NCBI RefSeq assembly: GCF_000775995.1 | Contig: NZ_CP009227.1 | Span: 1,902,296 to 1,966,295 of the forward strand | DNA from: Treponema sp. OMZ 838 | GTDB taxonomy: Bacteria; Spirochaetota; Spirochaetia; Treponematales; Treponemataceae | Reading direction: 5' to 3' | DNA length: 64,000 nt | Shown: piece after piece, positions 7,412-58,155 of the stretch | Position numbering within the stretch: the first letter of the stretch is position 1 | Layout: each line of letters starts with the position of its first letter | Notes under the pieces: generated by a model | Database searches by the model: none | Seen by the model: only the letters and a program-made list of their open reading frames with translations | Told to the model about the DNA's origin: nothing | Program-made: the position numbers and the translations under genes

Positions 7412-8215
7412 TTGTGTTACTATCGCCGCATGATCGGATTTTTTCTCAAAAAGAATTTTTTTGACGGGTGGGACAATTTTCTCCCGCTTATGATCTTTAA
7501 TGTTGCGATTATATTGATTTTTTCAGTGTTTTTCGGTTTAGCTTATTTAGTTTCAGCGGTATCGGTACTGCCGGTACTCATTTTGTTTATGTGTATCATT
7601 GGAATGGGAGTGCTGCTGTTAGCCGTTTCCAATTTGATGTCGCGTATTGCCGACTATAAATCTTTTTCATTGAAAGAAATCGGCGGAGAAATAAAACATA
7701 CGTGGCGGCATGGTGTTTTGTTCGCATTAATCGAAACTTTTTGTTGGGTTGTTGCCGGAGTTGCCGTCCCCTACTATTTTTCATTTCGGAATTTTCTCGG
7801 ACTCTTTCTCGGTGTTACTGTCGTATGGATTTTTGCGGTCATACAGCTGTCGCTTTTATGGTTTTTCCCGATACGGAGCCGGCTGGAATCGAATTTTGGC
7901 AAGTGTCTTAAAAAGTGCTTTATCGTTTTTTTTGATAATACCGGATTTACGCTTTTTATGCTGCTGTACAGTGTCGTTCTTATTATCATGACCCCGTTCT
8001 TAGCTTTTTTGGTGCCGGGCTTTTCAGGCCTCTTGCTTGCATGGAACAATGCCTTTAAACTGAGAATGTATAAATATGATTGGATTGAGCAGCATCCTGA
8101 AATACCGATTCAAACTGCACGGAAACAAATTCCGTGGGATGAGTTACTGGCGGAAGATCGGGAAACACTTGGCAGCCGGTCTATTCGAAATTTTATTTTT
8201 CCGTGGAAAGACTGA
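7412..8215 (+). CDS. hypothetical polytopic membrane protein (DUF624/YesL-like?)
   Basis: Six or more hydrophobic helices; no catalytic motif; followed by a hairpin terminator at 8229-8255. Confidence 0.45.
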   Translation: MCYYRRMIGFFLKKNFFDGWDNFLPLMIFNVAIILIFSVFFGLAYLVSAVSVLPVLILFMCIIGMGVLLLAVSNLMSRIADYKSFSLKEIGGEIKHTWRHGVLFALIETFCWVVAGVAVPYYFSFRNFLGLFLGVTVVWIFAVIQLSLLWFFPIRSRLESNFGKCLKKCFIVFFDNTGFTLFMLLYSVVLIIMTPFLAFLVPGFSGLLLAWNNAFKLRMYKYDWIEQHPEIPIQTARKQIPWDELLAEDRETLGSRSIRNFIFPWKD

Positions 8216-9223: not shown

Positions 9224-11011
9224 TTGTTATTGGTGATGCATATATATGGTATGAATATCATCAATAACAAAGCGCCTGATGGCGAAATCTCCTACCTTTT
9301 TGAACCGGAGACGGCGCTGCCCGATACGGAAAGCTGTCCCGTGATTTTTGAATCGGATAATCCCGAATACAGCTTGGAAAAAACAGCCGATGCCGTTTCT
9401 ATCTGCGCACAGACCGTATTCGGGATTCCGGCGTTGTACCCGTGGCAGCGGCTCGTGATTGCCAATATCCTCGATGCCGTGCACGCCGCCGAAGCGGTCG
9501 AAGCTGCCGCATCGCCTGCCGGTACTACGGCGTCGCACGCCGAACGGCAGTATGGACAATATGTCGCAGCGCCGTACGAAACCGCGGTACCGCACGTAGA
9601 GGACGACTTTCTGTCCGGCACGGGGGAACCTTTAAGCGAGCTTTACGACGAGGACGGCGTGTTACGGGGCAGGCAGATTGTCTTGTTGCCGACCGGCGCG
9701 GGAAAATCGCTGTGTTTTCAGGTGCCGGCGCTGTTGTTGGATAAGCCGACACTCATTATCTATCCGCTTTTAGCCTTGATGAGCGACCAGATGCGCCGGA
9801 TGTGTGAAGGCAATCTTGAACCGGTCTTGTTCCGCGGCGGCCAGAGCGGACAGGAACGAGCCGCGCAGTATGCCCGTCTCGAAGGTACGGACGGTAAACC
9901 TCCTGCGAAACTCATCATTGCCAATCCCGAAATTCTGATGCAGGAAGAAGTGTTAAACCGTATTGCAAAGCGCGGCATTGCCCACCTTGCTATAGACGAG
10001 GCGCACTGCGTTAGTGAATGGGGAGACAGCTTTCGGCCTGCCTATCAAACGCTTAAGCAGGTTATCGAAACGTTGAAACCGCCCGCCGTTACCGCTTTTA
10101 CCGCAACAGCGGGAAACGAGGTATTAAAGCGTATCGGTGAGGTACTCTTTGACGGACGGGCGCATCTGGTACGCGGAGAGTCGGATCGTACCAACATTGC
10201 TTATTATGTACGGCAATGCCGCGTAAAGGCGCCTGCCCTCTTGCAAGAGGTTATGCAGCGGCAGCGGCCGATGGTTATTTTCTGTGCAACGCGGAACGGT
10301 ACGGAACAAACCGCTGCGTTTTTACGCTACACGTTGCGGGATCGGGCGATTCGGTTTTATCATGCAGGTTTGCAGCGGGATGAAAAAGATGAGGTGGAGC
10401 AATGGTTCCACGGGCACGACAGCGCGATATTGGTAACGACCTGTGCGTGGGGGATGGGCGTCGATAAAAAGAACGTACGCACCGTGATTCATCTGAATGC
10501 GTCGCCCACCGCCGAAGCTTATGTACAAGAAGCGGGCAGGGGAGGGCGGGACGGAAACCCTGCGCAGGCGGTGTTACTGTGGAGTCCGGAAGACAAGGCA
10601 CGGATTGCGCTGTTACCGGAAAAGCAGCGGAAACGGGCGGAAATACTCGTTAATTTTGCCGAAAGCGGCCGCTGCCGGCGCGAGGTTCTGCTCGAAGCGC
10701 TCGGAGAAGTGCGGGCAGTTCCGCTTCATACAGGAGATGAAAGTATTGCCTGTTCCGGCTGCGATATCTGTAACGGAACCGCGCTATTATATCCGCAGGA
10801 TGAACGGGAATTGCTTTCGTTTGTGGCGGCAAATAAGCGGAAATTTACCGCTCCGCAGCTTATCCGTCTATTACACGAAAATCTCCCGCTCTGGCGCGCC
10901 GGCGACATTAGCAGCCTCGTTTCACAGCTTATCCAAGAGCGGAAAATCCGCCCAGCTAAGGCGTTTTTCTGGAAACGTGCGCTTGTATGTTTTAAAAAAA
11001 AACTGCTATAG
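9224..11011 (+). CDS. recQ: ATP-dependent DNA helicase RecQ
   Basis: Motif 0 (FGIPALYPWQ), Walker A LPTGAGKSLCFQ, DEAH (AIDEAHCVSEWG), and C-terminal zinc-binding cysteines (CRR...CSGCDIC). An unusual roughly 70-aa insertion sits between motif 0 and motif I. Confidence 0.9.
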   Translation: MLLVMHIYGMNIINNKAPDGEISYLFEPETALPDTESCPVIFESDNPEYSLEKTADAVSICAQTVFGIPALYPWQRLVIANILDAVHAAEAVEAAASPAGTTASHAERQYGQYVAAPYETAVPHVEDDFLSGTGEPLSELYDEDGVLRGRQIVLLPTGAGKSLCFQVPALLLDKPTLIIYPLLALMSDQMRRMCEGNLEPVLFRGGQSGQERAAQYARLEGTDGKPPAKLIIANPEILMQEEVLNRIAKRGIAHLAIDEAHCVSEWGDSFRPAYQTLKQVIETLKPPAVTAFTATAGNEVLKRIGEVLFDGRAHLVRGESDRTNIAYYVRQCRVKAPALLQEVMQRQRPMVIFCATRNGTEQTAAFLRYTLRDRAIRFYHAGLQRDEKDEVEQWFHGHDSAILVTTCAWGMGVDKKNVRTVIHLNASPTAEAYVQEAGRGGRDGNPAQAVLLWSPEDKARIALLPEKQRKRAEILVNFAESGRCRREVLLEALGEVRAVPLHTGDESIACSGCDICNGTALLYPQDERELLSFVAANKRKFTAPQLIRLLHENLPLWRAGDISSLVSQLIQERKIRPAKAFFWKRALVCFKKKLL

Positions 11012-11018
11012 TGTCGGT

Positions 11019-11258
11019 ATGACGCTTTATGAATATTATATGGTATTTCCCGATGGCGATATGCAGGAAGTTTCCGATGAACTTATGGTCGGATCTCTGT
11101 ACGATATCAATGGTAGGCGATTAATGCTGCCGCTTCCGACAAATAAGATGATTGTGTATCAGGTATGCGGGAAACGTACCCGTGAAGAAAGAGGTATTGT
11201 GGCAACCTATTACGCGCTGGAACAGTTGGATGCTGCAGAATTACGTGCATACGTCTAA
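11019..11258 (+). CDS. small hypothetical protein (80 aa), 3' portion of the listed ORF 10497..11258
   Basis: ATG 8 nt after the recQ stop; its own stop is 4 nt before the next gene, giving a tight recQ-orf80-orf223 operon. Confidence 0.3.
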   Translation: MTLYEYYMVFPDGDMQEVSDELMVGSLYDINGRRLMLPLPTNKMIVYQVCGKRTREERGIVATYYALEQLDAAELRAYV

Positions 11259-11261
11259 CGA

Positions 11262-11933
11262 ATGATCAACACCTATAATGAAACACACCTGCACCGCACC
11301 CTAAAAGACTTGTACAGCAGTGACAGCGCCGTGCAGGAAACATCGATAGAAGGTTTTATCTGTGATATTTACGATACAGGGCGGATAATAGAAATACAAA
11401 CCTCCAAACTTTTCGCTCTACGGGTTAAATTGGAAAAGCTTTTGCCGCGGTATCCTATTCAGATTGTTTATCCCATCATAGAAAATGCCTATATACTGAT
11501 GCTTAACGAAGACGGCAGTAAACGAAGCTGCCGGAAAAGTCCGAAACACGGGAATTTCTATCAAATTTTTAGAGAACTGTTAGGAATTGTTCACTGTCTC
11601 GATAATCCGAATCTTACAATACGGATTTTGTATATCGATTGCGAAGTTATCAAAATAGATGATAAGCAGGGGAGAAGCAGATATAAGAGACCGCGTATTA
11701 TCGATAAAAAGCTGTTAAAGATACATCGGGAGGAGGAGTTTCACGGTATCGATAGCTTGACTGTTCGGCTTATGGCAAAGCTGCCCGATGCATTTATCAG
11801 TACCGATGTAAGAAAATTAGGCGCCGGTGTCTATGCATCATATATCCTATCGTTTTTAAAAAAATGTCAAAAAATAGTCTTTTATACAAAGGCGGGGCGC
11901 TATCATGTATATAAAAAAACCGGTACCGAATAG
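11262..11933 (+). CDS. hypothetical protein, possible PD-(D/E)xK-like nuclease fold (weak)
   Basis: 223 aa. The D...E.Q..K-like segment (CDIYDTGRIIEIQTSK) is only weakly suggestive. Rho-independent terminator immediately downstream. Confidence 0.4.
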   Translation: MINTYNETHLHRTLKDLYSSDSAVQETSIEGFICDIYDTGRIIEIQTSKLFALRVKLEKLLPRYPIQIVYPIIENAYILMLNEDGSKRSCRKSPKHGNFYQIFRELLGIVHCLDNPNLTIRILYIDCEVIKIDDKQGRSRYKRPRIIDKKLLKIHREEEFHGIDSLTVRLMAKLPDAFISTDVRKLGAGVYASYILSFLKKCQKIVFYTKAGRYHVYKKTGTE

Positions 11934-11946
11934 GTACCGGTTTTCA
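11914..11946. terminator. bidirectional intrinsic terminator AAAAACCGGTACC-GAAT-AGGTACCGGTTTT
   Basis: Perfect GC-rich 11-bp stem flanked by an A-run and a T-run, between convergent genes. Confidence 0.65.
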
Positions 11947-11974
11947 ATCGATTGATACGAGTTAGAACAGCGGT

Positions 11975-12715
11975 TTACCAGCTGTCTTTCATATCGTCAT
12001 CATCGCGCATATCAACTTCATAGAGGTCGGTAACAGCACGGAGATCATCGAAGTAGATGTAGTAATTTCCATAAGCTTCCCAGGGATTGCATTCAATGCG
12101 GAAACCTACAATCTTTAAGCCCATGCTGGTGCCGTAGTGATAATCTTTTTGTACAATTCCCGTTCCTGCTGCATTCTGCGGGGGAACCGCAACGGTCATC
12201 AATTTCCATCCTGCATGATTCAGTTTTCCTACATAGAGTTCAAAGCGCTGTCCCATATAATCTTCGAGGATGAGCTTTAAAACATGCGGATAACTTCTTC
12301 CGACAACCCAAACGCTGACGGTTTTAGTAATACCTTCGACCGGAATCGGTTTAACGGCACGGACTTCAAAGCTGTTATAACCACGGCGGTAGAAGGACAC
12401 CTTTGTACCGTAAACTTTGCTGTCAGGAAGATTCAAGTTTTCCTCGTCCGGAATTGCTTTCTTCTGTTTGGGTGCGCCGTCAAACAAACGTCCTTGAATA
12501 ACGCCTTCGTCAGACGACATGGAACAAACCCAAGAGCCTTCATTTTCGAACTTATCAACTGAAACTTCTTTTAAGCGCTGTTCTGCAGATTCAACGCCGA
12601 TGCGGGAAGCATCGACTTGATCCAATGCCAAACCATCGCGAGTGTTCTCTTGAGCAAATGCAAACAACGATAATGCTGATAATAATGCTGCTACGGTAAA
12701 ATATTTTTTTGTCAT
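11975..12715 (-). CDS. secreted protein, possible FlaA-like flagellar filament outer-layer protein (paralog 2)
   Basis: Signal peptide and beta-rich sequence. It is clearly paralogous to the upstream gene (HAGWKLMTVAVP vs YHGWKNLAVTVP; YIYFDDLRAVTD vs YVFFDEFKALTN). The FlaA assignment is from memory of Treponema tandem FlaA-like pairs. Confidence 0.4.
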   Translation of the reverse strand: MTKKYFTVAALLSALSLFAFAQENTRDGLALDQVDASRIGVESAEQRLKEVSVDKFENEGSWVCSMSSDEGVIQGRLFDGAPKQKKAIPDEENLNLPDSKVYGTKVSFYRRGYNSFEVRAVKPIPVEGITKTVSVWVVGRSYPHVLKLILEDYMGQRFELYVGKLNHAGWKLMTVAVPPQNAAGTGIVQKDYHYGTSMGLKIVGFRIECNPWEAYGNYYIYFDDLRAVTDLYEVDMRDDDDMKDSW

Positions 12716-13452
12716 TATTTTCCGCCCTCCTTATTTGAATCGGCATCATCAAACTTGGCATTCTCTAACTCAAAACCGTCATAAGAAGCTGTACGAGTAT
12801 TTGTTAATGCCTTGAATTCATCAAAGAAAACATAAAAGTCATCAACATTCTCTGTAGGCTGAGTGCGGATTCTAAATGCGACAAAGGTCATATATTTAAG
12901 CTGTGATAAATAGCGTGACCGCTGTTGAATATTCGTGGGAACGGTAACTGCTAAATTTTTCCATCCATGGTAATTTAATGTTCCGACCGGTAATGTATGT
13001 ATCCGTCCGTTGCAATCGCGTACCAGAATTTCAAGGTCATACGCATAGCCTGCGCCCCAGACCCAAAGATCAAATCTTTGGACAACCCCTTTTAAGGGGA
13101 TTTCATAAGGAGCGGCATTATCGCCTGAGCTCTTTGTCGGATAAAGATCGACCCAGTTATCGCCTTGGCGGTTAAATTTAAACTGCATTCCTAAAAATTT
13201 GTATTCTTTATCGGAATCGGATTGCATAACCCGCAGAGCGTTCGGCATTCCGTCAAAATACTTTAAAATAGGATAACCTTCGGTGATAAACTTGCTTCCA
13301 ATAGCATTCCATGTTATCTCTGATGATTCGGGGGAGTCAAAAGTCTCCACCATATACGTTTGATAATTAACACCGCTATCCTGCGCTGCCAATGGAGTAC
13401 AAACGACTGCAAACATCAGAACAAAGACCGTAATAACAACGCCTTGTTTCAT
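12715..13452 (-). CDS. secreted protein, possible FlaA-like flagellar filament outer-layer protein (paralog 1)
   Basis: Signal peptide; paralog of 11975..12715; translationally coupled. Confidence 0.4.
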   Translation of the reverse strand: MKQGVVITVFVLMFAVVCTPLAAQDSGVNYQTYMVETFDSPESSEITWNAIGSKFITEGYPILKYFDGMPNALRVMQSDSDKEYKFLGMQFKFNRQGDNWVDLYPTKSSGDNAAPYEIPLKGVVQRFDLWVWGAGYAYDLEILVRDCNGRIHTLPVGTLNYHGWKNLAVTVPTNIQQRSRYLSQLKYMTFVAFRIRTQPTENVDDFYVFFDEFKALTNTRTASYDGFELENAKFDDADSNKEGGK

Positions 13453-13655
13453 TCACAACTCCTTTTATTTCCGCCGATATTCTAAGAAATCATACCCATT
13501 ATAGTCTGAAAAGAAAACTTTGTCAAACAACTCGGTAATCCCCAAACCTCATGGAGCATCAATTCCGCAGCGGATGAAGAACTCTGCCTACAGTATCGGC
13601 AGAGTAAGCAAAATATACAAGGGCTAGACGTTTTTTTTATTTTTTGTTAGGATGT

Positions 13656-14279
13656 TTAGCCGGCGTTTCCTTGCCGGTATAGTATAAAGTGGAGTACCGC
13701 ACCGATGAAAGTGAGTCCCGCTAAAATAGAGCCGTAGATGAGCGGATTCCCTTTAAAATAATGAAGCCCCAGCGCAAAAGTACCCAGTATAAGGATTCCT
13801 ATATATAGAAGAAAGCAAAGGACGCAGGCAACGGCGTAATAGAAGGTGATATCGGTACAAAAATGTAAGAGTGCATCCAGAATAAACAGCGCGCTTGCAT
13901 ACAGAATGATGCAGAGTACAATAGGTATGATGCGGAGATGTGTGCTTGCAAGAAATAGCTGTTGATATATCTTTACGGTAAATAGACCAAATAGCGCTGC
14001 CGGAACCGGTAAAACGTTAAAACCGGAAAAGATCAAGGCGATCAATAATACAATGCAGAAAGGGATAAGGGTATCCACAAAGAAGGAATAAAAAAAATAA
14101 CTGCCTAACGAACCGATATAGCGATCCACTCTTGCAGAAAAAAAAGATACAATCAGTAAGAACAGCGTAGCCGCGGTAATACCGACAAAAAACATAAAGA
14201 TATGCTTATTTTTTTCTTCTAATTGAAAGGCGTAAGAGAAAAAAATGAGCGGAAGACAAAATAATAGTAAAACAGCCAT
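13656..14279 (-). CDS. hypothetical polytopic membrane protein
   Basis: 207 aa, about six hydrophobic helices, no motif. Confidence 0.4.
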   Translation of the reverse strand: MAVLLLFCLPLIFFSYAFQLEEKNKHIFMFFVGITAATLFLLIVSFFSARVDRYIGSLGSYFFYSFFVDTLIPFCIVLLIALIFSGFNVLPVPAALFGLFTVKIYQQLFLASTHLRIIPIVLCIILYASALFILDALLHFCTDITFYYAVACVLCFLLYIGILILGTFALGLHYFKGNPLIYGSILAGLTFIGAVLHFILYRQGNAG

Positions 14280-14455
14280 ACCCAGTTAGAATATCATAAA
14301 ATGATACGATAGACAACGCTCATTTTGAATCTGTGTTGAACACCAAAACTACCGGTGACGGAATACTATAGAGCAGGAGACCATTCAAAATGTTCTATCT
14401 TTGAACAGCCTCCTATTCATTTTCTCGGTAATACAATATTGTACCGCCGCCTCTT

Positions 14456-14680
14456 TTACGGATGGCGTGCAGCTACTCCTTTTTCGATCAGTGATATCAG
14501 TTGATCTTCATACCAATCTTGGGAATAGGGTGCATGCTGGCGGACAATCGGCCGAACTTTTGCTTCGATGGTGTCCTTGCAGGCTTCGCAAATATCATAT
14601 TCGCGGATATGCCAATAGGTTCTTCCGGTTATGGGATTAACCAATTCTTTTTTGCAAATGTCACAATGTAAAGTTTTCAT
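14456..14680 (-). CDS. small zinc-ribbon protein (two CxxC pairs)
   Basis: 74 aa with CDIC ... CEAC. Confidence 0.4.
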   Translation of the reverse strand: MKTLHCDICKKELVNPITGRTYWHIREYDICEACKDTIEAKVRPIVRQHAPYSQDWYEDQLISLIEKGVAARHP

Positions 14681-14752
14681 AACGATGCTCTCCTAATAAT
14701 AAAGCTTGTATACAAAAGCATACCGTATATTCGTTTTTTTGTCGAGTCAATC

Positions 14753-14898
14753 GGGTAAACGCATCAGGCTGTTTTTTAACAACCCCGCAGAATTATTGAG
14801 GCTGTTCAACCAGAATTGAACCTCTTCGCGGTTCAAATGGTCTCACAGCCTCAATAATTCTGCGATTTTCATCTACCGTGCCTGATGCGTTTACCCTC
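14753..14898. repeat. 146-nt near-perfect long hairpin (MITE-like or structured RNA)
   Basis: Outer 17-bp perfect inverted repeat GGGTAAACGCATCAGGC / GCCTGATGCGTTTACCC, inner 20-bp perfect inverted repeat CGCAGAATTATTGAGGCTGT / ACAGCCTCAATAATTCTGCG, and central GAACC-TCTTCGC-GGTTC. Confidence 0.6.
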
Positions 14899-14929
14899 CG
14901 TATAAAAGAAACTTTCCGTAATCTCGCTA

Positions 14930-15395
14930 CTGCTTGGAACCACCGCCATCCATGGCGGTTCTGCCTCTCCAACGCTTTTGCAAATAGACGATGCAGATGC
15001 TAGGAGTTAGGCAAAAAAGTACCGCAGGCACGGTACAAAATGTACATCCCTGTACATTTTGTACCTACGTGTTTGCCCTGCAAACACGCTACTGACTAGA
15101 ACCACCGCCATCCGTGGCGGAAATGATACGTTGAGCATTTATTGCAGAAGCGGCACGGATGCCGCTGATTTAAACAGAAGCGATATTTCGGCTTTGCCGA
15201 AATTCGCCATTAAAAGTGTACACGGATGTACACTTTTAATGATGCGACGCAGTAGATGCACCGTATCTCCAACGCTTTTGAAATAGACGGTATAGATACA
15301 AGGAGCTAGCTGAAAATAAAGCGGAGGCGTATCTATGATACGTTGAGCATTTATTTTCAGCGTACGACGCAGTAGATATGCCGTATATTTCAAAA
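14930..15395. repeat. hairpin-dense intergenic repeat element, copy A of a multi-copy family
   Basis: Shares about 150-bp and about 130-bp modules with 28597-28985 and a core with 25655-25690. The modules include GAACCACCGCCATCCRTGGCGG, GGTACAAAATGTACA-TCCC-TGTACATTTTGTACC, CGTGTTTGC-NNN-GCAAACACG and GCYGAAAATAAA...TTTATTTTCRGC. Confidence 0.65.
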
Positions 15396-17102
15396 GGCTG
15401 TGTCGTTGATGCTATTAAGCCACTCCGTACACGCCGGTACTACGGAAGCAATGCAGCCTTCTTTAAAGGGATTTTTCAAGTTGGCCAGTTCCACCAGGCG
15501 GAGGAAGGAGTCGCGGCCGCCCGCTTTACAGAGACGCAGATAATCTTCCCAGGCCGTTTTGCGGTCGGAAAGGCTTTTTGCCCAGAATTGCAATGCGCAT
15601 ACTTGAGCAAGTGTGTAATCGATGTAATAAAACGGCGTACTGAAGATATGTCCTTGGCGCATCCAATAACCGCCGCGGTTCAAGAAATCGTTATCGTCGT
15701 AATCCCGTGCAGGTAGGTACTTTTTTTCGATACTGCGCCATGCAGCTTTTCGTTCTGCGGGGCTTGCTTCGGGATGCTCATATACCCAGTGTTGAAACTC
15801 GTCTACCGTAACGCCGTAGGGTAAAAACAGGAGCGCTCCGGATAGATGGGTAAAGCGGAACTTATCGGTTTGCTCTTCAAAAAACAGATTCATCCACGGC
15901 CATGTAAAGAATTCCATACTCATCGAGTGTATTTCGCAGGCTTCGTAGGTCGGCCATACGTACTCCAGCAGGCGGGCATTACGGCTCTGATAGGCTTGGA
16001 ATGCGTGCCCTGCTTCATGGGTCATTACCTCCACATCGTGCTGCGTATTGTTAAAGTTGGCAAAAATAAACGGCGCCTTGTAATCGGGAATTGTGGTACA
16101 ATAACCGCCTGCTGCCTTTCCTTTTTTTGCAAGCACATCGAGCATCTGATGCGAAGTCATGAAAGTAAAAAATTCATCGGTTTCCGGGGAAAGTTCCGCA
16201 TACATCTTTTTGGCATTTGCCAAAATCCAATCGGGATTGCCGTGAGGAATCGCATTGCCGGTGGTATATTCAAGCGGTTCATCATAGTAGTATAGCCGTT
16301 CCAACCCCAACCGTTTCGCCTGCCGTTTTCGTAAGTTCACGGCTATCGGCACAATTTCGCGGTAGATTTGATTCCGATAGGCAGCAACCATCTCGGCATT
16401 GTAGTCGGTTCTGCCCATCCGGTCGTATCCGAGCTGCACGAAGTTTTGATATCCGAGTTTTTTTGCGATGCGTGTACGCACTTTGACTAAATTATCGTAG
16501 ATGGAATCGAATTCTGCTTCGTGTTCCGCAAAAAAACCGTAGTAGGCTTTTGCCGCTTTTTTCCGTGTTGCACGGTCTTGATCCTGCATAAAAGGAGTCA
16601 GCTGCGCGAGCGTGCGTTTTTCTCCTGCAAATTCGATTTCTGCCGAAGCAATCAGTTTGTCGTAGCTGCTGGTAAGTTTGTTTTCTTCTGCTAAATCTTC
16701 CATAATAGAGGGTGAAAACACCTTCATATCAAGTTCGGTCATTGCGAAGATATGCGTCCCGAGTTCTTTTTCCAGCTCTTTACGGAACGATGAGGCAAGC
16801 AGTTTTTTATTAAAGCTATTGGTCATTTCGATATAAAACGGGTTTGATTCATCAAAAAACGTATTTTCGGCATCGTAAAAACCGTCACGGGTGTCGATAC
16901 TATGCCGTATTTCCGCAAGGGTCTGCATGGTTTGATAATGAGATTTGAGTTTTTGTATTTCATCAATGAGCGCGATCTGCTCTGCTGCCGAATGTGCGGC
17001 TTCGAACTGCTGTTCCGCTTTTTTAAATGCCGTTTTTAATGCCTCCATATCGGGGCGGGTATAGGGAAGGGCGGTAAATTGCTTCATTTCCGGTGTATTC
17101 AT
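15390..17102 (-). CDS. pepF: oligoendopeptidase F (M3B family zinc metallopeptidase)
   Basis: HEAGHAF zinc-binding HExxH motif and typical M3B length. The start is chosen at MNTPEMKQF, preceded by AAGGAG. Confidence 0.9.
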   Translation of the reverse strand: MNTPEMKQFTALPYTRPDMEALKTAFKKAEQQFEAAHSAAEQIALIDEIQKLKSHYQTMQTLAEIRHSIDTRDGFYDAENTFFDESNPFYIEMTNSFNKKLLASSFRKELEKELGTHIFAMTELDMKVFSPSIMEDLAEENKLTSSYDKLIASAEIEFAGEKRTLAQLTPFMQDQDRATRKKAAKAYYGFFAEHEAEFDSIYDNLVKVRTRIAKKLGYQNFVQLGYDRMGRTDYNAEMVAAYRNQIYREIVPIAVNLRKRQAKRLGLERLYYYDEPLEYTTGNAIPHGNPDWILANAKKMYAELSPETDEFFTFMTSHQMLDVLAKKGKAAGGYCTTIPDYKAPFIFANFNNTQHDVEVMTHEAGHAFQAYQSRNARLLEYVWPTYEACEIHSMSMEFFTWPWMNLFFEEQTDKFRFTHLSGALLFLPYGVTVDEFQHWVYEHPEASPAERKAAWRSIEKKYLPARDYDDNDFLNRGGYWMRQGHIFSTPFYYIDYTLAQVCALQFWAKSLSDRKTAWEDYLRLCKAGGRDSFLRLVELANLKNPFKEGCIASVVPACTEWLNSINDTAF

Positions 17103-23687: not shown

Positions 23688-25598
23688 GTGCTTGGTATGC
23701 AGTTTTCGGCAATAGAACATCGCAGTACGGATAATTTTTGTTATCCCCTCAATGAAAATGAGCTCATGATCGGCATTAAAACCGGCAGCGACATACGGCG
23801 TGTATTTATTATCTACGGAGATCCGTTCGACGGTTCGGTAACACCGGACGGCTGGGCATGGGAAGGCAAACGGCAGGAAATCACTCGCAAAAAAGATCTT
23901 CCGTATCATACATGGTGGCAGGTAACGGTTACGCTTCCTTATGGACGGTGTAAATACTGCTTTGAACTGCACGGTCAAGATGAAGGCGATGTCCGCTACT
24001 GTCTGGAAAACGGGTTTTACACGGCAGAGGAGCTTGTTACGCTGCGCCGAATAACCGGTAATTTTCCCGGTTTTGAGTTTCCGTGGCTGGACGGCGCCGA
24101 ATGCGTCCGCGTACCGGATTGGGTACCCCGCACGGTGTGGTATCAAATTTTTCCCGATCGGTTTTGCAGGGATACCGCTTCGCAGAAACCGAATGCTTTG
24201 CCGTGGCCCGCTGCCGAGGATGCCGTTACCAACAATGAACACTATGGCGGTACGCTTCGGGGTATTATCGAAAAGCTCGACTATCTTGCCGATTTGAACA
24301 TTACCGGTTTATATCTTAATCCGGTTAATGCTTCGCCGAGTGTGCATAAGTATGATACATCCGATTATTTGAATATCGATCCTGCATTCGGTACTGCGGA
24401 AGACTTATGCATGTTGGTGAAAGAAGCCCATGCACGCGGTATAAAAGTGATGCTGGACGGTGTCTTTAACCACTGCGGCTGGGACTTTGCACTGTGGCAG
24501 GATGTTGTCCGCAACGGAAAAGCCTCGCCGTATTTCGATTGGTTTATCGTACAAGAATGGCCGTTTGAAACCGTTGCAGAACCGGAATGTGAAGCCGCCG
24601 CGAGCCGACCGTCCGGTACAAACGGAAAAAGCGGACGATACAGCGTTTTTGCGTATGTCGATACGATGCCAAAGCTGAATACCAATAATCCTGCCGTCAT
24701 CGATTATCTGCTGAACGTATGCGAAACATGGGTGCGCAGTTATGATATTGACGGGCTCCGGCTCGATGTTGCGAATGAGCTTTCGCACACATTTTGCAGG
24801 CAGCTTTATCGGCGGATGCGCAGTCTTAAAAAAGGCTTTTACCTGCTCGGTGAAATATGGCGCAGTGCCTTGCCGTGGCTGCGCGGCGGCGAGTTGGATT
24901 CGGTAATGAATTATCCGCTCGCGCTGTGCTTTTGGAAATTCTTTTACGATAAAACGCTGCCTGCCCTGACTTTGGAGCAGGACATAAACGCTGTTTTTAC
25001 GGCCTATCCCGAACCTGTTACCGTAGGCCTGTTTAATCTGCTGGACTCCCATGATACGCCGCGCCTTTTTACCCGCAACGGCGGCGATGTGTCCGCCGTA
25101 TGGCAGCAATACGCCCTGCTGTTGAGCCTGCCCGGTTCGCCGTGTATCTATTACGGCAGCGAGGTTTTGCTTGCAGGCGGAAATGATCCCGATTGCCGCC
25201 GCTGTATGCCGTGGCAGGCTATCGAAGCAGGTGAATACGCCGAACCGATGAGCATGATGCGGCAGTTGATTGCTTTGCGCTATACGCATCCGGCAATGAC
25301 CGCTTCCGGTTACTCATATCTGCATGACGTGCCGCTTACCGAAAGCGAACCGAATAGAATTATTCATTTGCAAAAGTATGCCGAAACGGTAGAACCTGCG
25401 GAAACTACGGAGACCGTTGAAAGCGCGGAAATTCCGATTACGCGGAGCATAGACCTCATTCTCAATTGCGGTACGGCTCCGGTATCAATCGCACAGGTAA
25501 TAGATGAAAAGGCACGGGTATACCTCTCCCTGCGCTGCAGGGATAAAACGGTACAGCCCGGCGGCTTTATCTTTTTTGAACACCTCATCAACCGATGA
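23688..25598 (+). CDS. GH13 neopullulanase / cyclomaltodextrinase / maltogenic amylase family enzyme
   Basis: N-terminal domain followed by GH13 regions DGVFNHCG, GLRLDVANE, GEIW and LLDSHDTPR. Confidence 0.85.
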   Translation: MLGMQFSAIEHRSTDNFCYPLNENELMIGIKTGSDIRRVFIIYGDPFDGSVTPDGWAWEGKRQEITRKKDLPYHTWWQVTVTLPYGRCKYCFELHGQDEGDVRYCLENGFYTAEELVTLRRITGNFPGFEFPWLDGAECVRVPDWVPRTVWYQIFPDRFCRDTASQKPNALPWPAAEDAVTNNEHYGGTLRGIIEKLDYLADLNITGLYLNPVNASPSVHKYDTSDYLNIDPAFGTAEDLCMLVKEAHARGIKVMLDGVFNHCGWDFALWQDVVRNGKASPYFDWFIVQEWPFETVAEPECEAAASRPSGTNGKSGRYSVFAYVDTMPKLNTNNPAVIDYLLNVCETWVRSYDIDGLRLDVANELSHTFCRQLYRRMRSLKKGFYLLGEIWRSALPWLRGGELDSVMNYPLALCFWKFFYDKTLPALTLEQDINAVFTAYPEPVTVGLFNLLDSHDTPRLFTRNGGDVSAVWQQYALLLSLPGSPCIYYGSEVLLAGGNDPDCRRCMPWQAIEAGEYAEPMSMMRQLIALRYTHPAMTASGYSYLHDVPLTESEPNRIIHLQKYAETVEPAETTETVESAEIPITRSIDLILNCGTAPVSIAQVIDEKARVYLSLRCRDKTVQPGGFIFFEHLINR

Positions 25599-25599
25599 A

Positions 25600-25780
25600 C
25601 TTCCGTGTACATCGGTTGATGGCGAATTTTGGCAATGCCAAAATATCGCTTCTGTTATAACCACCGCCATCCGTGGCGGTAAAGTTTGCGGTGCAAACTC
25701 GATTATTTACGGGTGCGCCGTCCTGAACTTCGGAGCAAAGCTCCTCGTTGCAGGACATGCGCACGGCTAAAAACTTTTTC
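25600..25780. repeat. partial copy (copy C) of the hairpin repeat family
   Basis: Contains AACCACCGCCATCCGTGGCGGT plus the hairpins ATTTTGGCA-ATGCC-AAAAT and GTTTGCGGTGCAAAC. Confidence 0.5.
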
Positions 25781-25824
25781 GGATGTTTAAACATCCTGCA
25801 AAAGTTTTTATAGGAGGAGTTTTA

Positions 25825-27207: not shown

Positions 27208-28091
27208 TGAAAAAGCATTCTCTGAGTACCATACTGGTGCTGATTATCCTGTATACCGTCCTTATTTCGACGGTGCTCTTTGTCCTCTATCCCGTTGCCT
27301 TTACCGTCGGCGCGGCGTTTACCAAAACCAATTCGTTGGCGGCAACAAGCATTTCTCCTATTCCCAAGGAACCGTCGGTGTATCAGTTTAAACGGCTTTT
27401 AACACCTGCCGACAAAATCGTCGAAGGTACAACCGATGTACGTGGTACAAACTACGTTAAATGGTACGGAAATACCCTCAAAATTGCGGTGTTCAATGTT
27501 CTTTTGACCTTGGCTGTCTGTGTAACCGCCGCCTATATCTTTTCCCGGTTTAGGTTCCCGCTGCGGAAGCCGCTGCTCGCTTCTATGATTGTGCTGCAGA
27601 TGTTCCCAAGCTTTATCGGAATGGTTGCAACGTATGTACTGCTATGGAAGATAAACGGCTTAAATACCCATTGGGGACTCCTTTTGGTATATGCGGCGGG
27701 CAGTGTGCCTTTTAACGTATGGCTGATGAAAGGCTATTTTGATACGGTGCCGAAAAGCGTTGAAGAAGCCGCCCATGTCGACGGTGCCGGTTCGTTTACC
27801 ACATACGTGAAAATCGTACTGCCGATGGTAAAGCCGATGATTATGTTCCTTGCGCTTACCAGCTTTACCGCACCGTGGATGGACTTTATCTTCCCGCGCC
27901 TTATTTTGCGCAGCGATGATAAAAAGACCTTGGCACTCGGCCTTTTCGAGCTGATTAACGGCCGCGCAAACGATAACTTTACGATGTTTGCTGCAGGCGC
28001 GCTGCTCGTAGCAGTGCCCTTTACGCTGCTGTTTATGGCAGGACAGAAATTCCTATTAAAGTCCCTTGCCGCCGGAGCGGTAAAAGAGTAG
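27207..28091 (+). CDS. malG: maltodextrin ABC transporter permease MalG-like
   Basis: EAA loop (EEAAHVDGAGSFTTYVKIVLPMVKP); translationally coupled to malF (ATGA overlap). Confidence 0.9.
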   Translation: MKKHSLSTILVLIILYTVLISTVLFVLYPVAFTVGAAFTKTNSLAATSISPIPKEPSVYQFKRLLTPADKIVEGTTDVRGTNYVKWYGNTLKIAVFNVLLTLAVCVTAAYIFSRFRFPLRKPLLASMIVLQMFPSFIGMVATYVLLWKINGLNTHWGLLLVYAAGSVPFNVWLMKGYFDTVPKSVEEAAHVDGAGSFTTYVKIVLPMVKPMIMFLALTSFTAPWMDFIFPRLILRSDDKKTLALGLFELINGRANDNFTMFAAGALLVAVPFTLLFMAGQKFLLKSLAAGAVKE

Positions 28092-28224
28092 AAAAGGGCA
28101 GGGCAAAGAATTGGCAATGGGTAATTGGTGATGCGTAATTATATTTCCAATTACCCCAGCCTCGTCTAAAACGGTAGAAGAAAAGTTCAATGTAATTTTC
28201 ACTCTTACCGGGCAAGTAAAAGAA

Positions 28225-28545
28225 ATGAGCGACCGCCTGACTGAGGCAATGCGGGAACAGGAGAATGGAAGTAGGGAAGTGTTGACTGCCATTAAGAGCA
28301 TCAACACGGTGACGATAGAAGTACAGGCCGGCTCCGAAGAAATGTTAAAAGGCGGAGAAAGTGTTACGGGCGAAATGCATAAACTCGATGAACTTACTCG
28401 TATCATAACCGACAGCATGAATGAAATGGCTTCCGGTGCGGTGCGGATTAGTAACGCCATACAAGAAGTAAACGAAATCACGCAGAAGAATAAGCGGAAT
28501 ATTGGGAATTTGACGGAAGCAGTCGCTCAATTTAAAGTCAATTAG
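28225..28545 (+). pseudogene. remnant of a methyl-accepting chemotaxis protein (C-terminal roughly 100 aa of the signalling domain only)
   Basis: The 106-aa ORF matches the extreme C-terminus of MCP signalling domains (ASGAVRISNAIQEVNEITQKNKRNIGNLTEAVAQFKV). No ligand-binding, HAMP or TM portion lies upstream. Confidence 0.55.
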
Positions 28546-28596
28546 CGGCTCTGCCCCTAATGACCCCATCTCGCGCAAACTAAGCCGATGCCCCCG

Positions 28597-28985
28597 TATA
28601 TTTGCAAAAGGGCGCTTTCGAAAAAAAGCTTCCGTAAGCTTTTGCAAAGAGACGGTATAGATGCTAGGAGCGTACAAAAAACACCCGCAGGCACGGTAAA
28701 AAATGTACGTCCTGTACATTTTTTACCTACGTGTTTGCTGCGCAAACACGCTGCTGCGTAGAACCACCGCCGTCCATGGCAGTTCTGATACGTCGAAGAC
28801 TAATTTGTTCGCAGCAACAAAGTAGATACACACATCCAGCGCTTTTGCAAAGAGACGGCGTAGATACAAGGAGTTAGCCGAAAATAAAGCGCAGGCGTAT
28901 TTATATACGTTGAGCATTTATTTTCGGCGTGCGACGCAGTAGATGCGTCGTATATTTGCAAAAGACTAGTCGACACGAAAAAGTT
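28597..28985. repeat. hairpin-dense intergenic repeat element, copy B of the family
   Basis: Collinear with 14967-15120 and with 15268-15395. Stems carry compensatory substitutions relative to copy A. Confidence 0.65.
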
Positions 28986-31449
28986 GACTCTTCTGATACA
29001 CAGGGAAAAAGCGTTTCTGGCTGCCGTTTTCAAACTGTACGGTAATCACCAATTCGCCGCCGCTTTGCCTTGACTGTACGACATAGCCGTAGCCGTAGTC
29101 GTCGTGAAAGATCTGCTGCCCGCACTTCCATAATGCAGCTTCTTCGTCGGCGGGAGAGGTAAAGCTTGCAATGGACTGTCCTATCACGTCGACAAGACCG
29201 CTGTCAATTTCCGCTAAAAAGCGGCTTGGTTCCATATACGACAGCTTTCCGTACATCCGCCGTGCTGCGCAGCTGGTCATATACAGCGCGTCCTGTGCAC
29301 GGGTACAGGCAACGTACATCAACCGCCGCTCCTCTTCCATATCTTCGGCGCTTTCGTCATTGCGCGGAAAAATACCGTTTTCAAGACCGGTGATAATTAC
29401 ATTGCGGAACTCAAGCCCTTTTGTGTTGTGCATAGTGATAAGCTGCACGGCATCGGCTCCTGCATCGGTTTCCGCAAGGCTGCGGTCCAGTTCGATATGC
29501 TCCAAAAAGGAAGTCAGTCCGGCAGCCGAGCAGGGGTACAGCGAGGCGGTATTGGCAAGTTCCTGCAAGTTCGCTGTTTTCTGCGTACCCATCACTTCGT
29601 CCTGATTCCGGTGAAAAACGCCTAAACCTGTTTGCTCGATAACCGCCAGTACAAAGGCAGCGAGCCGCTCGCCCTGCTGTCCGTGTTTTTGCGTAATTGC
29701 CTGTTCAGAGGCGCCGGTGTCTATGGTACTGCCGATTGGGGCATCAGACCGCAGGTCGTCGGCTTGTGCATCGATGTCCACTGCCGTATCAAACGCCGCA
29801 GCGCCGGCGGTATTTGCGGAATCGTATTCGGCAAGAAGGCTGCGGAGCGAATGCAATGTGTTTAAAAACTCCTGCAGCGCGGTACCTGCTTTCTTGGGTA
29901 TCGGGAGCTTTGCTCCTGCGCCGAGTAGTACAGTAATATAGTCGGCTCCTTGTTGCGGTATAGCTTCTGCTTGTTGTCGCAAGGGTAGGGCAGTGGGTTC
30001 TTGCAGTTGAGTGAACTCTTGTTGAGCGCTTCCACTGTCTTGTTCCGGTGAACTGCCGAATGCCAATACACCTGTATATGCCGGTGGTTCTATGGTTGCC
30101 GCTTCTTCCACAGTTGCCGCTGAACCTGTATTTGCGGATAAATTTGTAAATGCTGCGCGAGCGTACGCAACCAACTTATTTTGTGTGGTTTCGCCGATTC
30201 CCCGCGCGGGTTTATTCACCATACGGCGGAAGGCAATTTCATCGCGTCCGTTTGCGATAAGCGCCAAAAGAGCAAGCGCATCTTTAATTTCTTCGCGTTC
30301 GTAGAACTTGAGCGTACCGACTACTTTGTGAGGAATTTTTTCGTGCAGGAAAGTTGTTTCAAAGTTGAGCGACTGTGCATTGGTGCGGTACAAAATTGCC
30401 CAATCTGAATAGGCACCGCCTGCCCGTACCGCCTTTTTGATGAGCTGCACACACAGCTCTGCCTCCGCGTCTTGAGACGGTAGGTAATAAAGGCAGGGCT
30501 TTTGTCCGCCGGTTCCGCGTGCTGCAATCAGCGTTTTACCGAGCCGGCCCTCATTGCGGGAAACCACCGAGTCGGCGACGCGCAAAATCGGTTCATACGA
30601 GCGGTAGTTCCGCACCAGCCGGATAATCTTTGTGTGCGGAAATTGACGGTCAAAGGTCAGGATGTTCTGCACCTCCGCGCCGCGGAACCGGTAAATAGAC
30701 TGATCGTCATCGCCGACAACACAGACATACGTGTCTTCGCCGGTCAATTCCCGCAATAGCTGAAACTGAGCGCTGTTTGAATCCTGATACTCATCCACGA
30801 GGATCACTTTAAAGCGTCTATGAAGCTGCTGGGCAATAGCGGTATGTTCTTGCAGCAGCTGAACCGGCAGCATAATCAAATCGCCGAAGTCGGCATTCCC
30901 TGTTTCACGGAGCCGCTGTTGATACGCACGGTAGATTACAGCGAACTCAGGCGCGGGGTCGATCATCGTAAGCTGCGGGTTATCAGGCAACAGGCAATAA
31001 TCTTTCGCGCGGGAGATTTTCCGTATAAAGCGCTGCGCCTCCTGCTTATTTAGCTGAGGCAGCACTTTCATCAACAGCGTTACCGAATCATCATCATCGT
31101 AAATCGTAAAATTGGGAGAAAGCCCCGCCCATTCGGCATACCGGCGCAGCATCCACGCACCGAAAGAGTGAAAGGTGCGGATACTCGACCTGGCTGCGCG
31201 TTCATCCAGTGCCTGTGCCCGTTCCGCCATTTCCCGAGCAGCCTTGTTGGTAAAGGTAACTGCCAAAATCGATTCAGGACGCACATCTTGTTCTGCAATG
31301 AGCCACGCAATTTTTGTTGTAATAACCCGCGTCTTCCCCGAACCCGCACCAGCCAAAATCAAAAGCGGCGAGCCGGTATGACACACGGCTTCAAGTTGTT
31401 CAGGATTTAAAACCGATAAATATCCGCACGTTTCTTCCATCGTTCTCAT
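28966..31449 (-). CDS. uvrD: ATP-dependent DNA helicase UvrD/PcrA family
   Basis: Walker A AGAGSGKT, motifs TFTNKAAREM and DEYQDSN, and a C-terminal UvrD_C/Tudor-like tail. A roughly 170-aa A/T/Q-rich low-complexity insertion sits in the 2B region. Confidence 0.9.
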   Translation of the reverse strand: MRTMEETCGYLSVLNPEQLEAVCHTGSPLLILAGAGSGKTRVITTKIAWLIAEQDVRPESILAVTFTNKAAREMAERAQALDERAARSSIRTFHSFGAWMLRRYAEWAGLSPNFTIYDDDDSVTLLMKVLPQLNKQEAQRFIRKISRAKDYCLLPDNPQLTMIDPAPEFAVIYRAYQQRLRETGNADFGDLIMLPVQLLQEHTAIAQQLHRRFKVILVDEYQDSNSAQFQLLRELTGEDTYVCVVGDDDQSIYRFRGAEVQNILTFDRQFPHTKIIRLVRNYRSYEPILRVADSVVSRNEGRLGKTLIAARGTGGQKPCLYYLPSQDAEAELCVQLIKKAVRAGGAYSDWAILYRTNAQSLNFETTFLHEKIPHKVVGTLKFYEREEIKDALALLALIANGRDEIAFRRMVNKPARGIGETTQNKLVAYARAAFTNLSANTGSAATVEEAATIEPPAYTGVLAFGSSPEQDSGSAQQEFTQLQEPTALPLRQQAEAIPQQGADYITVLLGAGAKLPIPKKAGTALQEFLNTLHSLRSLLAEYDSANTAGAAAFDTAVDIDAQADDLRSDAPIGSTIDTGASEQAITQKHGQQGERLAAFVLAVIEQTGLGVFHRNQDEVMGTQKTANLQELANTASLYPCSAAGLTSFLEHIELDRSLAETDAGADAVQLITMHNTKGLEFRNVIITGLENGIFPRNDESAEDMEEERRLMYVACTRAQDALYMTSCAARRMYGKLSYMEPSRFLAEIDSGLVDVIGQSIASFTSPADEEAALWKCGQQIFHDDYGYGYVVQSRQSGGELVITVQFENGSQKRFFPVYQKSQLFRVD

Positions 31450-34987: not shown

Positions 34988-35128
34988 AGTCTAAAGTTTT
35001 ATCTGGGGGCCTCACTCCGTTCGGGGCGCTACGTCCGCTGTTCCGCTTTCGCTCCATTCCTCCACTTCGTTTCTGTACGGACAAGGATGTCCGTGATGTG
35101 AATCAGCAGCTCCTATCGCTAACCCTGT
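34988..35128. repeat. left copy of a roughly 150-bp direct repeat flanking the GNAT/ATPase cassette
   Basis: About 90% identical to 37097-37245. Begins with the iteron-like CTAAAGTTTTATCTGG and the motif CCTCACTCCGTTCGGG. Confidence 0.7.
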
Positions 35129-37115: not shown

Positions 37116-37245
37116 TTATATGGTGGTTTTCTCACTCCGTTCGGGTCGCTACGTCTGCTGTTTCGCTTTCGCTCCATTTCTCCGCTTCGTTTCTATACGG
37201 ACAAGGATGTCCGTGATGTGAATCAGAAGCTCCCATCGCTAATCC
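37097..37245. repeat. right copy of the roughly 150-bp direct repeat
   Basis: See 34988-35128. The 30-bp start motif TATATGGTGGTTTTCTCACTCCGTTCGGG also occurs at 42270-42300. Confidence 0.7.
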
Positions 37246-37335
37246 TATTGTAGCGGTATACATTATCTCTCTATAGACTAAGGCTATGAGCAGGGGGCGG
37301 AGCGGTTTGTTACATTATACCGCCCGCCTATGATA

Positions 37336-54930: not shown

Positions 54931-54982
54931 CTTTCCCTTCCATAAAATGCATCAATATTTTGGAAATATACGACTCTCATTC

Positions 54983-55117
54983 TACCGCTGCTTACTATCG
55001 CCCCAGCCGTGCCAATGCCCGTGTATCGGGATCTACATCGTATTGTATTTCTTCATAGAGATTATCGTCAATACAGCGGCGTTCAATCATCTTTTCAATG
55101 ATGGTGTTGCGGCAGAG
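54983..55117. repeat. about 137-bp direct repeat, copy 1: orphan duplicate of the 3' end of gene 56461..57084
   Basis: About 96% identical to 56451-56589. Confidence 0.7.
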
Positions 55118-55209
55118 GGAATATTTGAAAAAGGAATTCAACATACAAAGGATTTCGTGTTATTGGCGGCTTTTGAGCTTACCATCACTGATCACCCCTG
55201 AATCTTCGA

Positions 55210-56443: not shown

Positions 56444-56460
56444 TCTTTTACCACTGCTTA

Positions 56461-57084
56461 CTATCGCTCCCTCCGTGCCAATGCCCGTGTATCGGGATCT
56501 ACATCGTATTGTATTTCTTCATAGAGATTATCGTCAATACAGCGGCGTTCAATCATCTTTTCAACGATGGTGTTACGGCAGAGGGGGCATTTCATGTTAC
56601 GATACAGTATCCGGAGAATATCGTTAAACACGGGATCTTCGGCTAACGCCTTTGACTCTAGAGCCGTATGTTTTATCTCATGTATATCGAAGATAGTGCA
56701 CAGCTCAAGCAAGTTAAAAAGCTCAGTCTTTTTGTTTTCAGAGTAATATTTCAAGCAGACTTTTATAAAGGCATTTCTGGTATTGTCGTCATACCGGTCT
56801 TTTAAAAAATCATAGACGGCAGGATCATTGAAGGGAACAAGCGCTTCGATAATATCTTGCCGAAACGGCTTATTTTCAGTTGCTTCAAAAGAATCGAAGA
56901 GTACCTGTGCAGGAATTTTGATTTGCCGTTCTTCGAATAATCGGATAAGTCTTTTTTTCAACGGCAGTTCAGCTTCAAGAAATACATTCGAAAGTTTTTG
57001 GATATCGGCTTCGCTTGCACGTCTTCGTACCCATCTCCAAAGGCTGATACGTTCCAGTCGGGTTGGGGAGGGTTTTCTTTTCAA
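56461..57084 (-). CDS. hypothetical alpha-helical protein
   Basis: 207 aa; its 3' end is duplicated at 54983-55117; 4-nt overlap with the upstream gene. Confidence 0.4.
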   Translation of the reverse strand: MKRKPSPTRLERISLWRWVRRRASEADIQKLSNVFLEAELPLKKRLIRLFEERQIKIPAQVLFDSFEATENKPFRQDIIEALVPFNDPAVYDFLKDRYDDNTRNAFIKVCLKYYSENKKTELFNLLELCTIFDIHEIKHTALESKALAEDPVFNDILRILYRNMKCPLCRNTIVEKMIERRCIDDNLYEEIQYDVDPDTRALARRER

Positions 57085-57761: not shown

Positions 57762-58155
57762 TACTCCAATTGTGTAATAACCCCGACATCAACATTGAGC
57801 CCGCGGATTTTCAGTGCATTAAAAATGATATTTTCCACATCTACTGAATATTTTTGCGTAAAAGCGCAAAAAATTCCAGTAGATGTTTTGCTTATTCTAT
57901 AAAATCTTTCCCATTTTGTCTCTTTTCTTTCTCAATAAGGCTGAAAAAAAGCCGAAAATCATAAAGACGAACGTTTATTTTCAGCCGTTGAAATAGCGCG
58001 GCTGAAAAACACTGCGAGTTTGCTTTCGCAAACGTCGTAGATTATATGTGCGCTTTTCGCGCACGAATGCAACAGTTTCCAAAGTTGATACTTTGTTCAA
58101 CTGTTGCATTTTAAGGAAAGTTTATCTATATAGAGGCAAATTGGAGGTTCAATAC

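Follow-up and report, generated by a model that had tools for sequence, protein, structure and literature searches.

A mosaic hairpin repeat with nested TD-2 motifs at a variable uvrD junction in oral treponemes

The window analysed here, a 64,000-nucleotide stretch of the Treponema sp. OMZ 838 genome, has a GC content of about 45%. The repeat under study, copy B, lies in it between an MCP remnant on the left and the 3' end of uvrD on the right, the setting in which the initial annotation had placed it (Table 1). BLASTP aligned 127 aa of the MCP remnant, at 83% identity, with residues 569-695 of the MCP of locus L002, a protein of 696 aa; Pfam detected MCPsignal in it at E = 0.0024 only, in a search opened to E ≤ 10, and gave no match at the default threshold. 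The remnant is cut further, at 28448, in CP051194.1 and OMZ 857. The UvrD of the window is 96% identical to the helicase of Treponema sp. OMZ 857, and its stop codon occupies 28966-28968. An exact-sequence protein look-up returned matches for the permease, a 207-aa protein and Band_7, and none for UvrD (two start codons) or the MCP remnant. The extent first given to copy B stands in the main, except that its end at 28985 takes in 20 nt of uvrD coding sequence; 28582-28965 are better limits.

Table 1. Copy B, its neighbouring genes and related repeats in the window
Feature	Position	Strand	Remarks
Cluster A	14938-15396	+	Collinear partner; TD-2-bearing unit, then basic unit, as in copy B
Cluster A, lone TD-2 hairpin 1	14938-14963
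Cluster A, two-TD-2 unit	14975-15266
Cluster A, TD-2	15028-15121	-
Cluster A, TD-2	15149-15245	+
Cluster A, basic unit	15275-15396
TD-2 copy with further hairpins	25583-25811	-	TD-2 at 25583-25680; cmscan 65 bits
MCP C-terminal remnant	28156-28545	+	Last ~128 codons and stop codon; longest ORF 28225-28545
Copy B, Z stub	28582-28610	+	Right end with terminal inverted repeat CCGTATATTTGCAAAAG; rest of unit lost
Copy B, spacer	28611-28638		GGCGCTTTCGAAAAAAAGCTTCCGTAAG with small hairpin; inverted repeat I8
Copy B, unit 1	28639-28835	+	X module (28639-28672), Y 5' arm, TD-2 in site 1, then 3' part
Copy B, TD-2 (RF03162)	28691-28783	-	Three hairpins; antisense to X->Z, sense with respect to uvrD
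Copy B, unit 2	28842-28964	+	Complete basic X-Y-Z, 123 nt; folds as rod hairpin; X 28842-28875, Y 28878-28928, Z 28930-28964
X box	28632-28670 and 28835-28873
Box GAACCACCGCCGTCCATGGC	28764-28783
Box ATACGTTGAGCATTTATTTTC	28905-28925
Box GACGCAGTAGATGCGTCG	28933-28950
uvrD-type helicase gene	28966-31449	-	Pfam UvrD-helicase E = 7e-85, UvrD_C E = 4e-65

Copy B is made up of a Z stub, a spacer, one TD-2-bearing unit (unit 1) and one basic unit (unit 2), side by side. The order of this repeated DNA is that of cluster A, bearing out the collinearity noted in the initial annotation, and all four of the sequence boxes listed there were found in copy B at their positions. In a BLASTN search against the window, 28590-28970 matched 14974-15134 with 82.7% identity over 162 nt and 15251-15399 with 84.8% identity over 151 nt, and a repeat search of the window recovered the same families (D4-D9 and D14). 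The repeat is far beyond chance, since its TD-2 motif scored 67.1 bits on the minus strand in cmscan against a gathering score of 48.7 (E = 4.5e-10, model positions 1-98 of 98) and the 124-nt unit profile gave 112 bits for unit 2 (E = 5e-33).

Relatives were compared as genome pieces of 8-20 kb, and several of them share parts of this arrangement. The Z stub matches positions 8-35 of the Z-module profile (nhmmer, E = 4e-4), and in OMZ 806 an equivalent stub and spacer come after a complete TD-2/Z (L050 7605-7668), with the copy B spacer conserved at 7640-7668. The X module of unit 1 was recognised at E = 2.6e-9 (nhmmer), and its 3' part consists of a degenerate Y 3' arm followed by a Z' without the terminal repeat. 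The same layout is seen in L005 12565-12774 and L009 12615-12760, and the Z'-X junction is common to L013 (87% over 108 nt). Unit 2 has a minimum free energy of -57.6 kcal/mol on the plus strand (z = -8.5) and -46.9 kcal/mol on the minus strand. A different hairpin element, with a 27-nt inverted repeat at 14786-14864, occupies 14753-14893 just left of cluster A; its second copy elsewhere in CP051194.1 (L135 9403-9542, 89% identical) marks it as another small repeat family.

TD-1 and TD-2 were described by Weinberg et al. 2007 as candidate structured RNAs of T. denticola only, with no function assigned, and TD-2 was graded a probable RNA (PMC1950547). The copy B TD-2 has the same three hairpins and the same conserved loops as the published motif. 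In the copy B motif all three stems of the model are present; the hairpin-1 loop is CAUGGACG and the hairpin-3 loop is the variant ACAGGACG. The setting differs from the published one: the motif was described as stand-alone and confined to T. denticola, whereas the present host is a member of the T. vincentii group, and roughly half of the TD-2 copies examined form nested modules of a larger carrier repeat, which the Rfam model does not cover. TD-1 (RF03155, 75.9 bits) also occurs in the window, at 58006-58115 on the plus strand, about 40 nt upstream of an ORF starting near 58157; a degenerate Y-like hairpin (57941-57988) precedes the motif.

The nesting follows strict rules. TD-2, a module of about 95 nt with three hairpins, sits at two fixed sites of the X-Y-Z unit: at site 1, the tip of the Y hairpin, it replaces about 10 nt (GTAYnnnn), and at site 2, the Y-Z boundary, it replaces the 3' arm of Y. 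Just after X it is antisense to X->Z in 10 of 10 cases and just before Z it is sense in 7 of 7, giving the layout X-Y5-[TD-2 antisense]-Y3-[TD-2 sense]-Z in all 17 scorable cases; the other TD-2 copies, about 17 of the 35 examined, stand alone or beside degenerate modules. Units occur in forms of about 47, 65, 124, 210 and 300 nt, with TD-2 content yielding those of about 124, 210 and 300 nt. Gain of TD-2 swaps out 10-13 nt and is no clean insertion, so neither simple transposition nor simple deletion fits. The TD-2 copy at 25583-25811 lies between amylase and permease genes, and is present in some strains and absent in others. There, a block of about 216 nt (25596-25811, TD-2 with further hairpins) stands in place of 13 nt, TGGGTAATATATA, of L004 and L005 and changes the 3' end of the upstream alpha-amylase gene, both its final codons and its stop codon; a small inverted segment is found at the right end of this block in L010.

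The basic X-Y-Z unit is 122-124 nt long and has 17-nt imperfect inverted ends, CTTTTGCAAAkAgrCGG ... CCGTATATTTGCAAAAG, which are 88% complementary (inverted repeat I1). Fourteen full-length units from the window, unit 2 included, and from several Treponema genomes, among them T. vincentii OMZ 806 and T. putidum, were aligned (alignment A1). Their consensus fold is one rod of 42 pairs, 19 of which show compensatory changes. Paired cells amounted to 97.6% (97.8% in terminal helix 1), compared with 85.9% in column shuffles; when partners were slid by 1-3 columns, 34-51% were paired and at most 4 pairs had compensatory changes. Three types of Y stem are common to several species, and the covariation is thus in part a record of few old events copied many times, since unit subtypes are shared across species. 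Taken with the conserved hairpin loops, the strong covariation indicates selection on structure.

The fold also differs between strands. The X->Z strand folds more stably in 13 of the 14 units (mean, -52.5 versus -42.8 kcal/mol), and it carries 43 G-U pairs against 10 A-C mismatches, the latter being G-U on the other strand. This is moderate evidence that one single strand, as RNA or ssDNA, is the target of selection; we grade it no higher because two conserved G-U columns give about half of the excess and several of the 14 units are close kin. The TD-2 stems have no strand bias, with 36 G-U pairs in sense and 35 in antisense. A tabulation by eye from the ORF lists showed units in mixed orientation with respect to adjacent genes, which does not separate the 3'-UTR, 5'-UTR and DNA-level readings.

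The X-Y-Z part had no Rfam match at E ≤ 1 in 28400-29100 or 14650-15500. The extra hits in these regions, BcKCsr2 in the former (15.9 bits) and frnS (28.9 bits, E = 0.0097) and sot0042 (13.2 bits) in the latter, were far below their gathering scores. A literature search gave no account of the X-Y-Z family or of the nesting rules, and only Weinberg et al. 2007 on TD-2. The TD-2 part of copy B is therefore already known, while the X-Y-Z unit and the nesting rules appear to be absent from Rfam and the searched literature. An integron attC site was considered and rejected: GTTAGGC is found at the X-Y boundary in one subtype only, its partner core GCCTAAC is missing and cassette arrays do not occur.

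A hairpin of this kind at the end of a gene could be an ordinary bidirectional terminator between convergent genes. Copy B does lie between convergent genes, unit 2 ending 1 nt short of the uvrD stop codon, and 28000-29200 contains no other terminator-like site; units elsewhere often come directly after stop codons (L023, L024, L065). However, no U tract follows the rod on either strand, units are also found upstream of genes and between divergent genes, and the conserved internal loops and nested TD-2 exceed the needs of termination; we consider this reading very unlikely. A scan of 28000-29200 gave one promoter-like site (1.2 expected) and no terminators and, with no excess of sites, backs neither a transcription unit of its own nor a canonical terminator.

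The strand asymmetry of the X-Y-Z rod is also what would be expected if the units were primarily functional RNA, with TD-2 as a CsrA-binding decoy or 3'-UTR site, the rod as a stabiliser or processing site, and repetition and variability as secondary features. Any transcript across a two-TD-2 unit would then hold one TD-2 in sense, and a uvrD read-through transcript would carry the copy B motif in sense about 180 nt past the stop. The published grading of TD-2 as a probable RNA favours such a role, as do the loops themselves: CANGGANG occurs in hairpin-1 and hairpin-3 loops of 32 of the 35 TD-2 copies (65 such loops in all), on stems that covary, and in 23 of the 35 the hairpin-3 tip shows 0-1 mismatch to the 12-nt E. 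coli CsrA SELEX consensus RUACARGGAUGU. CsrA consensus sequences and a preference for GGA in hairpin loops have been described (PMC4347634, PMC6849547), and T. denticola has a fliW-csrA cluster (PMC9481697). Several findings speak against the RNA reading, which we regard as rather unlikely. TD-2 orientation is mixed, the copy at 25583-25680 being antisense to the amylase-permease operon and that at 15149-15245 antisense to both its neighbours; TD-2 stems contain G-U pairs equally on both strands; 28000-29200 has no excess of promoters or terminators; no Csr/Rsm sRNA family matched in Rfam, either in the window at the gathering threshold or in 28400-29100 at E ≤ 1; and CANGGANG, a short 8-nt motif, has 32 matches in the window against 21.5 expected.

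The loops may be compared with those of the CsrB/RsmY/RsmZ RNAs. Both have GGA in hairpin loops, the TD-2 loops fitting CANGGANG and the hairpin-3 tip fitting the SELEX consensus, whereas TD-2 has two sites per module, is without its own promoter or terminator, is not matched by these families in Rfam and has mixed orientation relative to genes. In organisms with fliW-csrA, the known CsrA antagonist is the protein FliW, and to our knowledge it is the only one in the oral treponeme lineage. TD-2 copies might be dispersed, recombination-shuffled CsrA-binding cassettes held in fixed orientation within a carrier hairpin at gene ends, although we think this quite unlikely. If true, many transcripts of oral treponemes would be under CsrA control, or would jointly titrate CsrA, and an RNA arm of the Csr system would have been spread by a repeat element.

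The distribution of the family was surveyed by a scan with the 17-nt end, one genome per species, which gave at least 120 stretches: 21 from Treponema (at least 10 genomes) and 99 from other organisms. Among the matches listed, the full X-Y-Z unit is restricted to Treponema: it was present in the 21 Treponema stretches only, where full-length units scored profile E values of 1e-19 to 1e-34, and in the 99 non-Treponema stretches the unit profile reached E = 0.01 at best. These 99 were rejected as mostly chance 17-mer matches without the rest of the unit. All copies in the loci examined are intergenic. Contigs classed as viral by IMG/VR contain full units (L150 350-472 and 2694-2816) and partial ones (L140 216-311, L144 849-944), and a TD-2 hairpin-1 box is present in L153, another contig of that class.

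A classical MITE, a non-autonomous element which a DDE transposase acting in trans recognises by its ends and moves by cut-and-paste, would fit the imperfect 17-nt terminal inverted repeats, the uniform length of 122-124 nt, the many intergenic copies and their presence or absence between strains. The initial annotation had likewise considered copy B a possible insertion site, and had named an intact MCP gene together with the repeat in related strains as a finding that would weaken a mobility reading. Such genes are common, with the repeat directly after the stop codon in L002, L023, L024, L043, L055 and L065, and the mobility reading is weakened accordingly. Nor can truncation of MCP by a mobile insertion be upheld: the 3' end and stop codon are kept beside the repeat, and the 5' 82% of the gene is lost at about 28157, some 440 nt away. 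The target-site duplications that the annotation had suggested looking for were not found at the flanks of the 14 units or at two filled-versus-empty site pairs, where 10-13 nt are replaced in place of a clean insertion. Moreover, the roughly 480 kb of Treponema sequence examined contained no IS bounded by such ends, and the copies have diverged, with compensatory changes between them, and are not near-identical recent ones, all of which makes a MITE highly improbable.

The lack of target duplication, together with strand-asymmetric folding, conserved hairpin loops on variable stems and BIME-like mosaics of modules in alternating orientation, would be in keeping with a REP/RAYT or IS200/IS605-type ssDNA element, in which an HUH (Y1) enzyme recognises hairpins on one strand and inserts without duplication. 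GTAG lies within the Z loop GCAGTAGATGC in some units. On the other hand, no Y1 transposase was seen in the loci examined, where the genes recurring beside units are MCP, Rpn-family and AAA/PDDEXK_9 genes, and units of 124-300 nt far exceed REPs in size. An origin of this type is, in our judgement, improbable.

Comparison of the junctions among relatives revealed extensive differences. The common permease gene has at least four different 3' neighbours in related genomes: thioredoxin reductase, an AAA_14 ATPase, an intact MCP and then RadC, and the MCP remnant and then uvrD. In CP051195.1 some 700 kb separates uvrD from the permease, and each has repeats of the family at its flank. At the uvrD end, the Z end is always kept, while six related genomes have six different module sets; a basic unit is found in the window and OMZ 806, TD-2 in site 1 in OMZ 857, in sites 1 and 2 in CP051194.1 and in site 2 in CP051195.1, and a Z stub only in L086. 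CP051194.1 and the window are 99.5% identical in both flanks, yet 28448-28930 is wholly different, and cluster A likewise differs from its CP051194.1 counterpart despite 99% identical flanks. At one orthologous site TD-2 is absent in L004 and L008 and single in L005, and L009 has two copies together with an inversion of the entire unit.

The last 1 kb of uvrD (28930-29952) is 96.7% identical to CP051194.1, compared with 99.5% in the flanks, and to judge from this difference it looks like a recombination tract that ends in the repeat. UvrD also varies in length, 827 versus 801 aa, the difference falling in a low-complexity stretch near 29952-30018.

Some breakpoints coincide with units. In CP051194.1 and OMZ 857 the MCP remnant runs into an X module, the two sharing GGTGC at the join, and Rpn-family genes break off exactly where a unit ends, with GCAAAAG as the shared bases. 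Rpn-family (HTH_Rpn_C) nuclease genes lie beside the units at L063 7358-7480, L090 5500-5622 and L043 2933-3056; in three of the Rpn loci the first ~23 codons are lost at the unit end, and in L005 (13201-14085) two inverted units lie on either side of an intact Rpn gene. We do not claim Rpn as a mobilising enzyme, these genes being multi-copy in these genomes and the joins looking like truncations.

On a larger scale, the same flanks in T. vincentii OMZ 806 do not enclose the 13.6 kb that separates clusters A and B in the window: there, the sequence left of cluster A (window 10992-14921) leads through a single hybrid cluster, which includes the copy B spacer, straight into uvrD. The block contains peptidase M3, Big_2/Mac-1, hemerythrin, amylase and ABC-transporter genes and the MCP remnant. 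Because direct repeat clusters surround it and it is missing between the same flanks elsewhere, we infer that it was gained or lost by recombination through the direct repeats A and B. The changing permease neighbours, the 700-kb separation in CP051195.1 and the missing block in OMZ 806 support the suggestion of the initial annotation that copy B may mark a past rearrangement.

Copy B is thus probably a recombination-prone mosaic repeat whose modules are exchanged, whose clusters serve as crossover points and whose single-strand fold is under selection. From end states only, we infer that recombination is the mechanism by which modules are spread and swapped. Copy B is a non-coding mosaic of a leftover right end and two tandem units, with the basic unit an imperfect palindrome, a single strand of which folds into one long rod hairpin. 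Copies would build up at gene ends, and modules would be swapped, added, lost or inverted as copies recombine with one another, by homologous exchange or at microhomologies a few bases long; the clusters would also have acted as crossover points for larger rearrangements, from which the uvrD junction of copy B would have arisen. Selection on the fold of the X->Z strand would act most simply on RNA, upon read-through from flanking genes. A purely selfish or passive repeat would need no structural selection, and to that extent the covariation and conserved loops count against the reading we prefer.

In its general features, the X-Y-Z family is, by analogy, best compared with the mosaic intergenic repeats BIME/REP, ERIC and BOX. 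BIME/REP elements of enterobacteria are extragenic palindromes in alternating orientation with conserved linkers, located at gene ends, without target duplications and involved in rearrangements. The X-Y-Z family shares the extragenic palindromic mosaic, the alternating orientation, the position at gene ends, the lack of target duplications and the rearrangements, whereas it has no sequence kinship with them, is 3-8 times longer, shows no RAYT in the loci examined and has stems that covary between copies. ERIC (IRU) elements of enterobacteria are imperfect palindromes of about 127 nt, found in intergenic DNA that is transcribed, and also exist in longer forms with insertions at fixed internal sites; BOX elements of Streptococcus pneumoniae consist of boxA, a variable number of boxB and boxC. 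An X-Y-Z unit with 0-2 TD-2 modules parallels both, although the phyla differ and there is no sequence similarity, and we know of no ERIC or BOX counterpart of the module orientation rule or of the CsrA-like loops. Correia/NEMIS elements of Neisseria and other MITEs resemble the unit in size, terminal inverted repeats and transcript hairpin; Correia elements duplicate a TA target, whereas no target duplication was seen here.

TD-2, without function or setting since 2007, gains a context from these results, occurring outside T. denticola and in about half of its copies nested under strict rules. The X-Y-Z family appears to be a driver of plasticity in oral treponeme genomes: between strains with 99.5% flank identity the cluster interiors are completely different, and clusters bound a 13.6-kb carbohydrate-uptake block. 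The near-perfect match of the TD-2 hairpin tip to the CsrA consensus is a testable lead in an organism with fliW-csrA. For annotation, repeat clusters explain spurious small ORF calls and the gene remnants (MCP, Rpn) at junctions.

Some further repeats were observed. A promoter-like TTGACA-N17-ATAATT followed by (CACAGCT)n lies directly beside the unit in L004 (12714-12830), L005 (12775-12940), L008 (12687-12845) and L009 (12918-12970). The number of (CACAGCT) repeats ranges from 2 to more than 20 between strains, and since this variable tract is upstream of a Flg_new_2/LRR_5 surface-protein gene, the site is a candidate phase-variation switch. In the window, a 116-nt direct repeat (35011-35126 and 37131-37246, 92% identical) surrounds AAA_14/DUF4143 and acetyltransferase genes, which possibly form a two-gene cassette, and a 147-nt direct repeat (54980-55126 and 56446-56592, 93% identical) has its copies 1466 nt apart.
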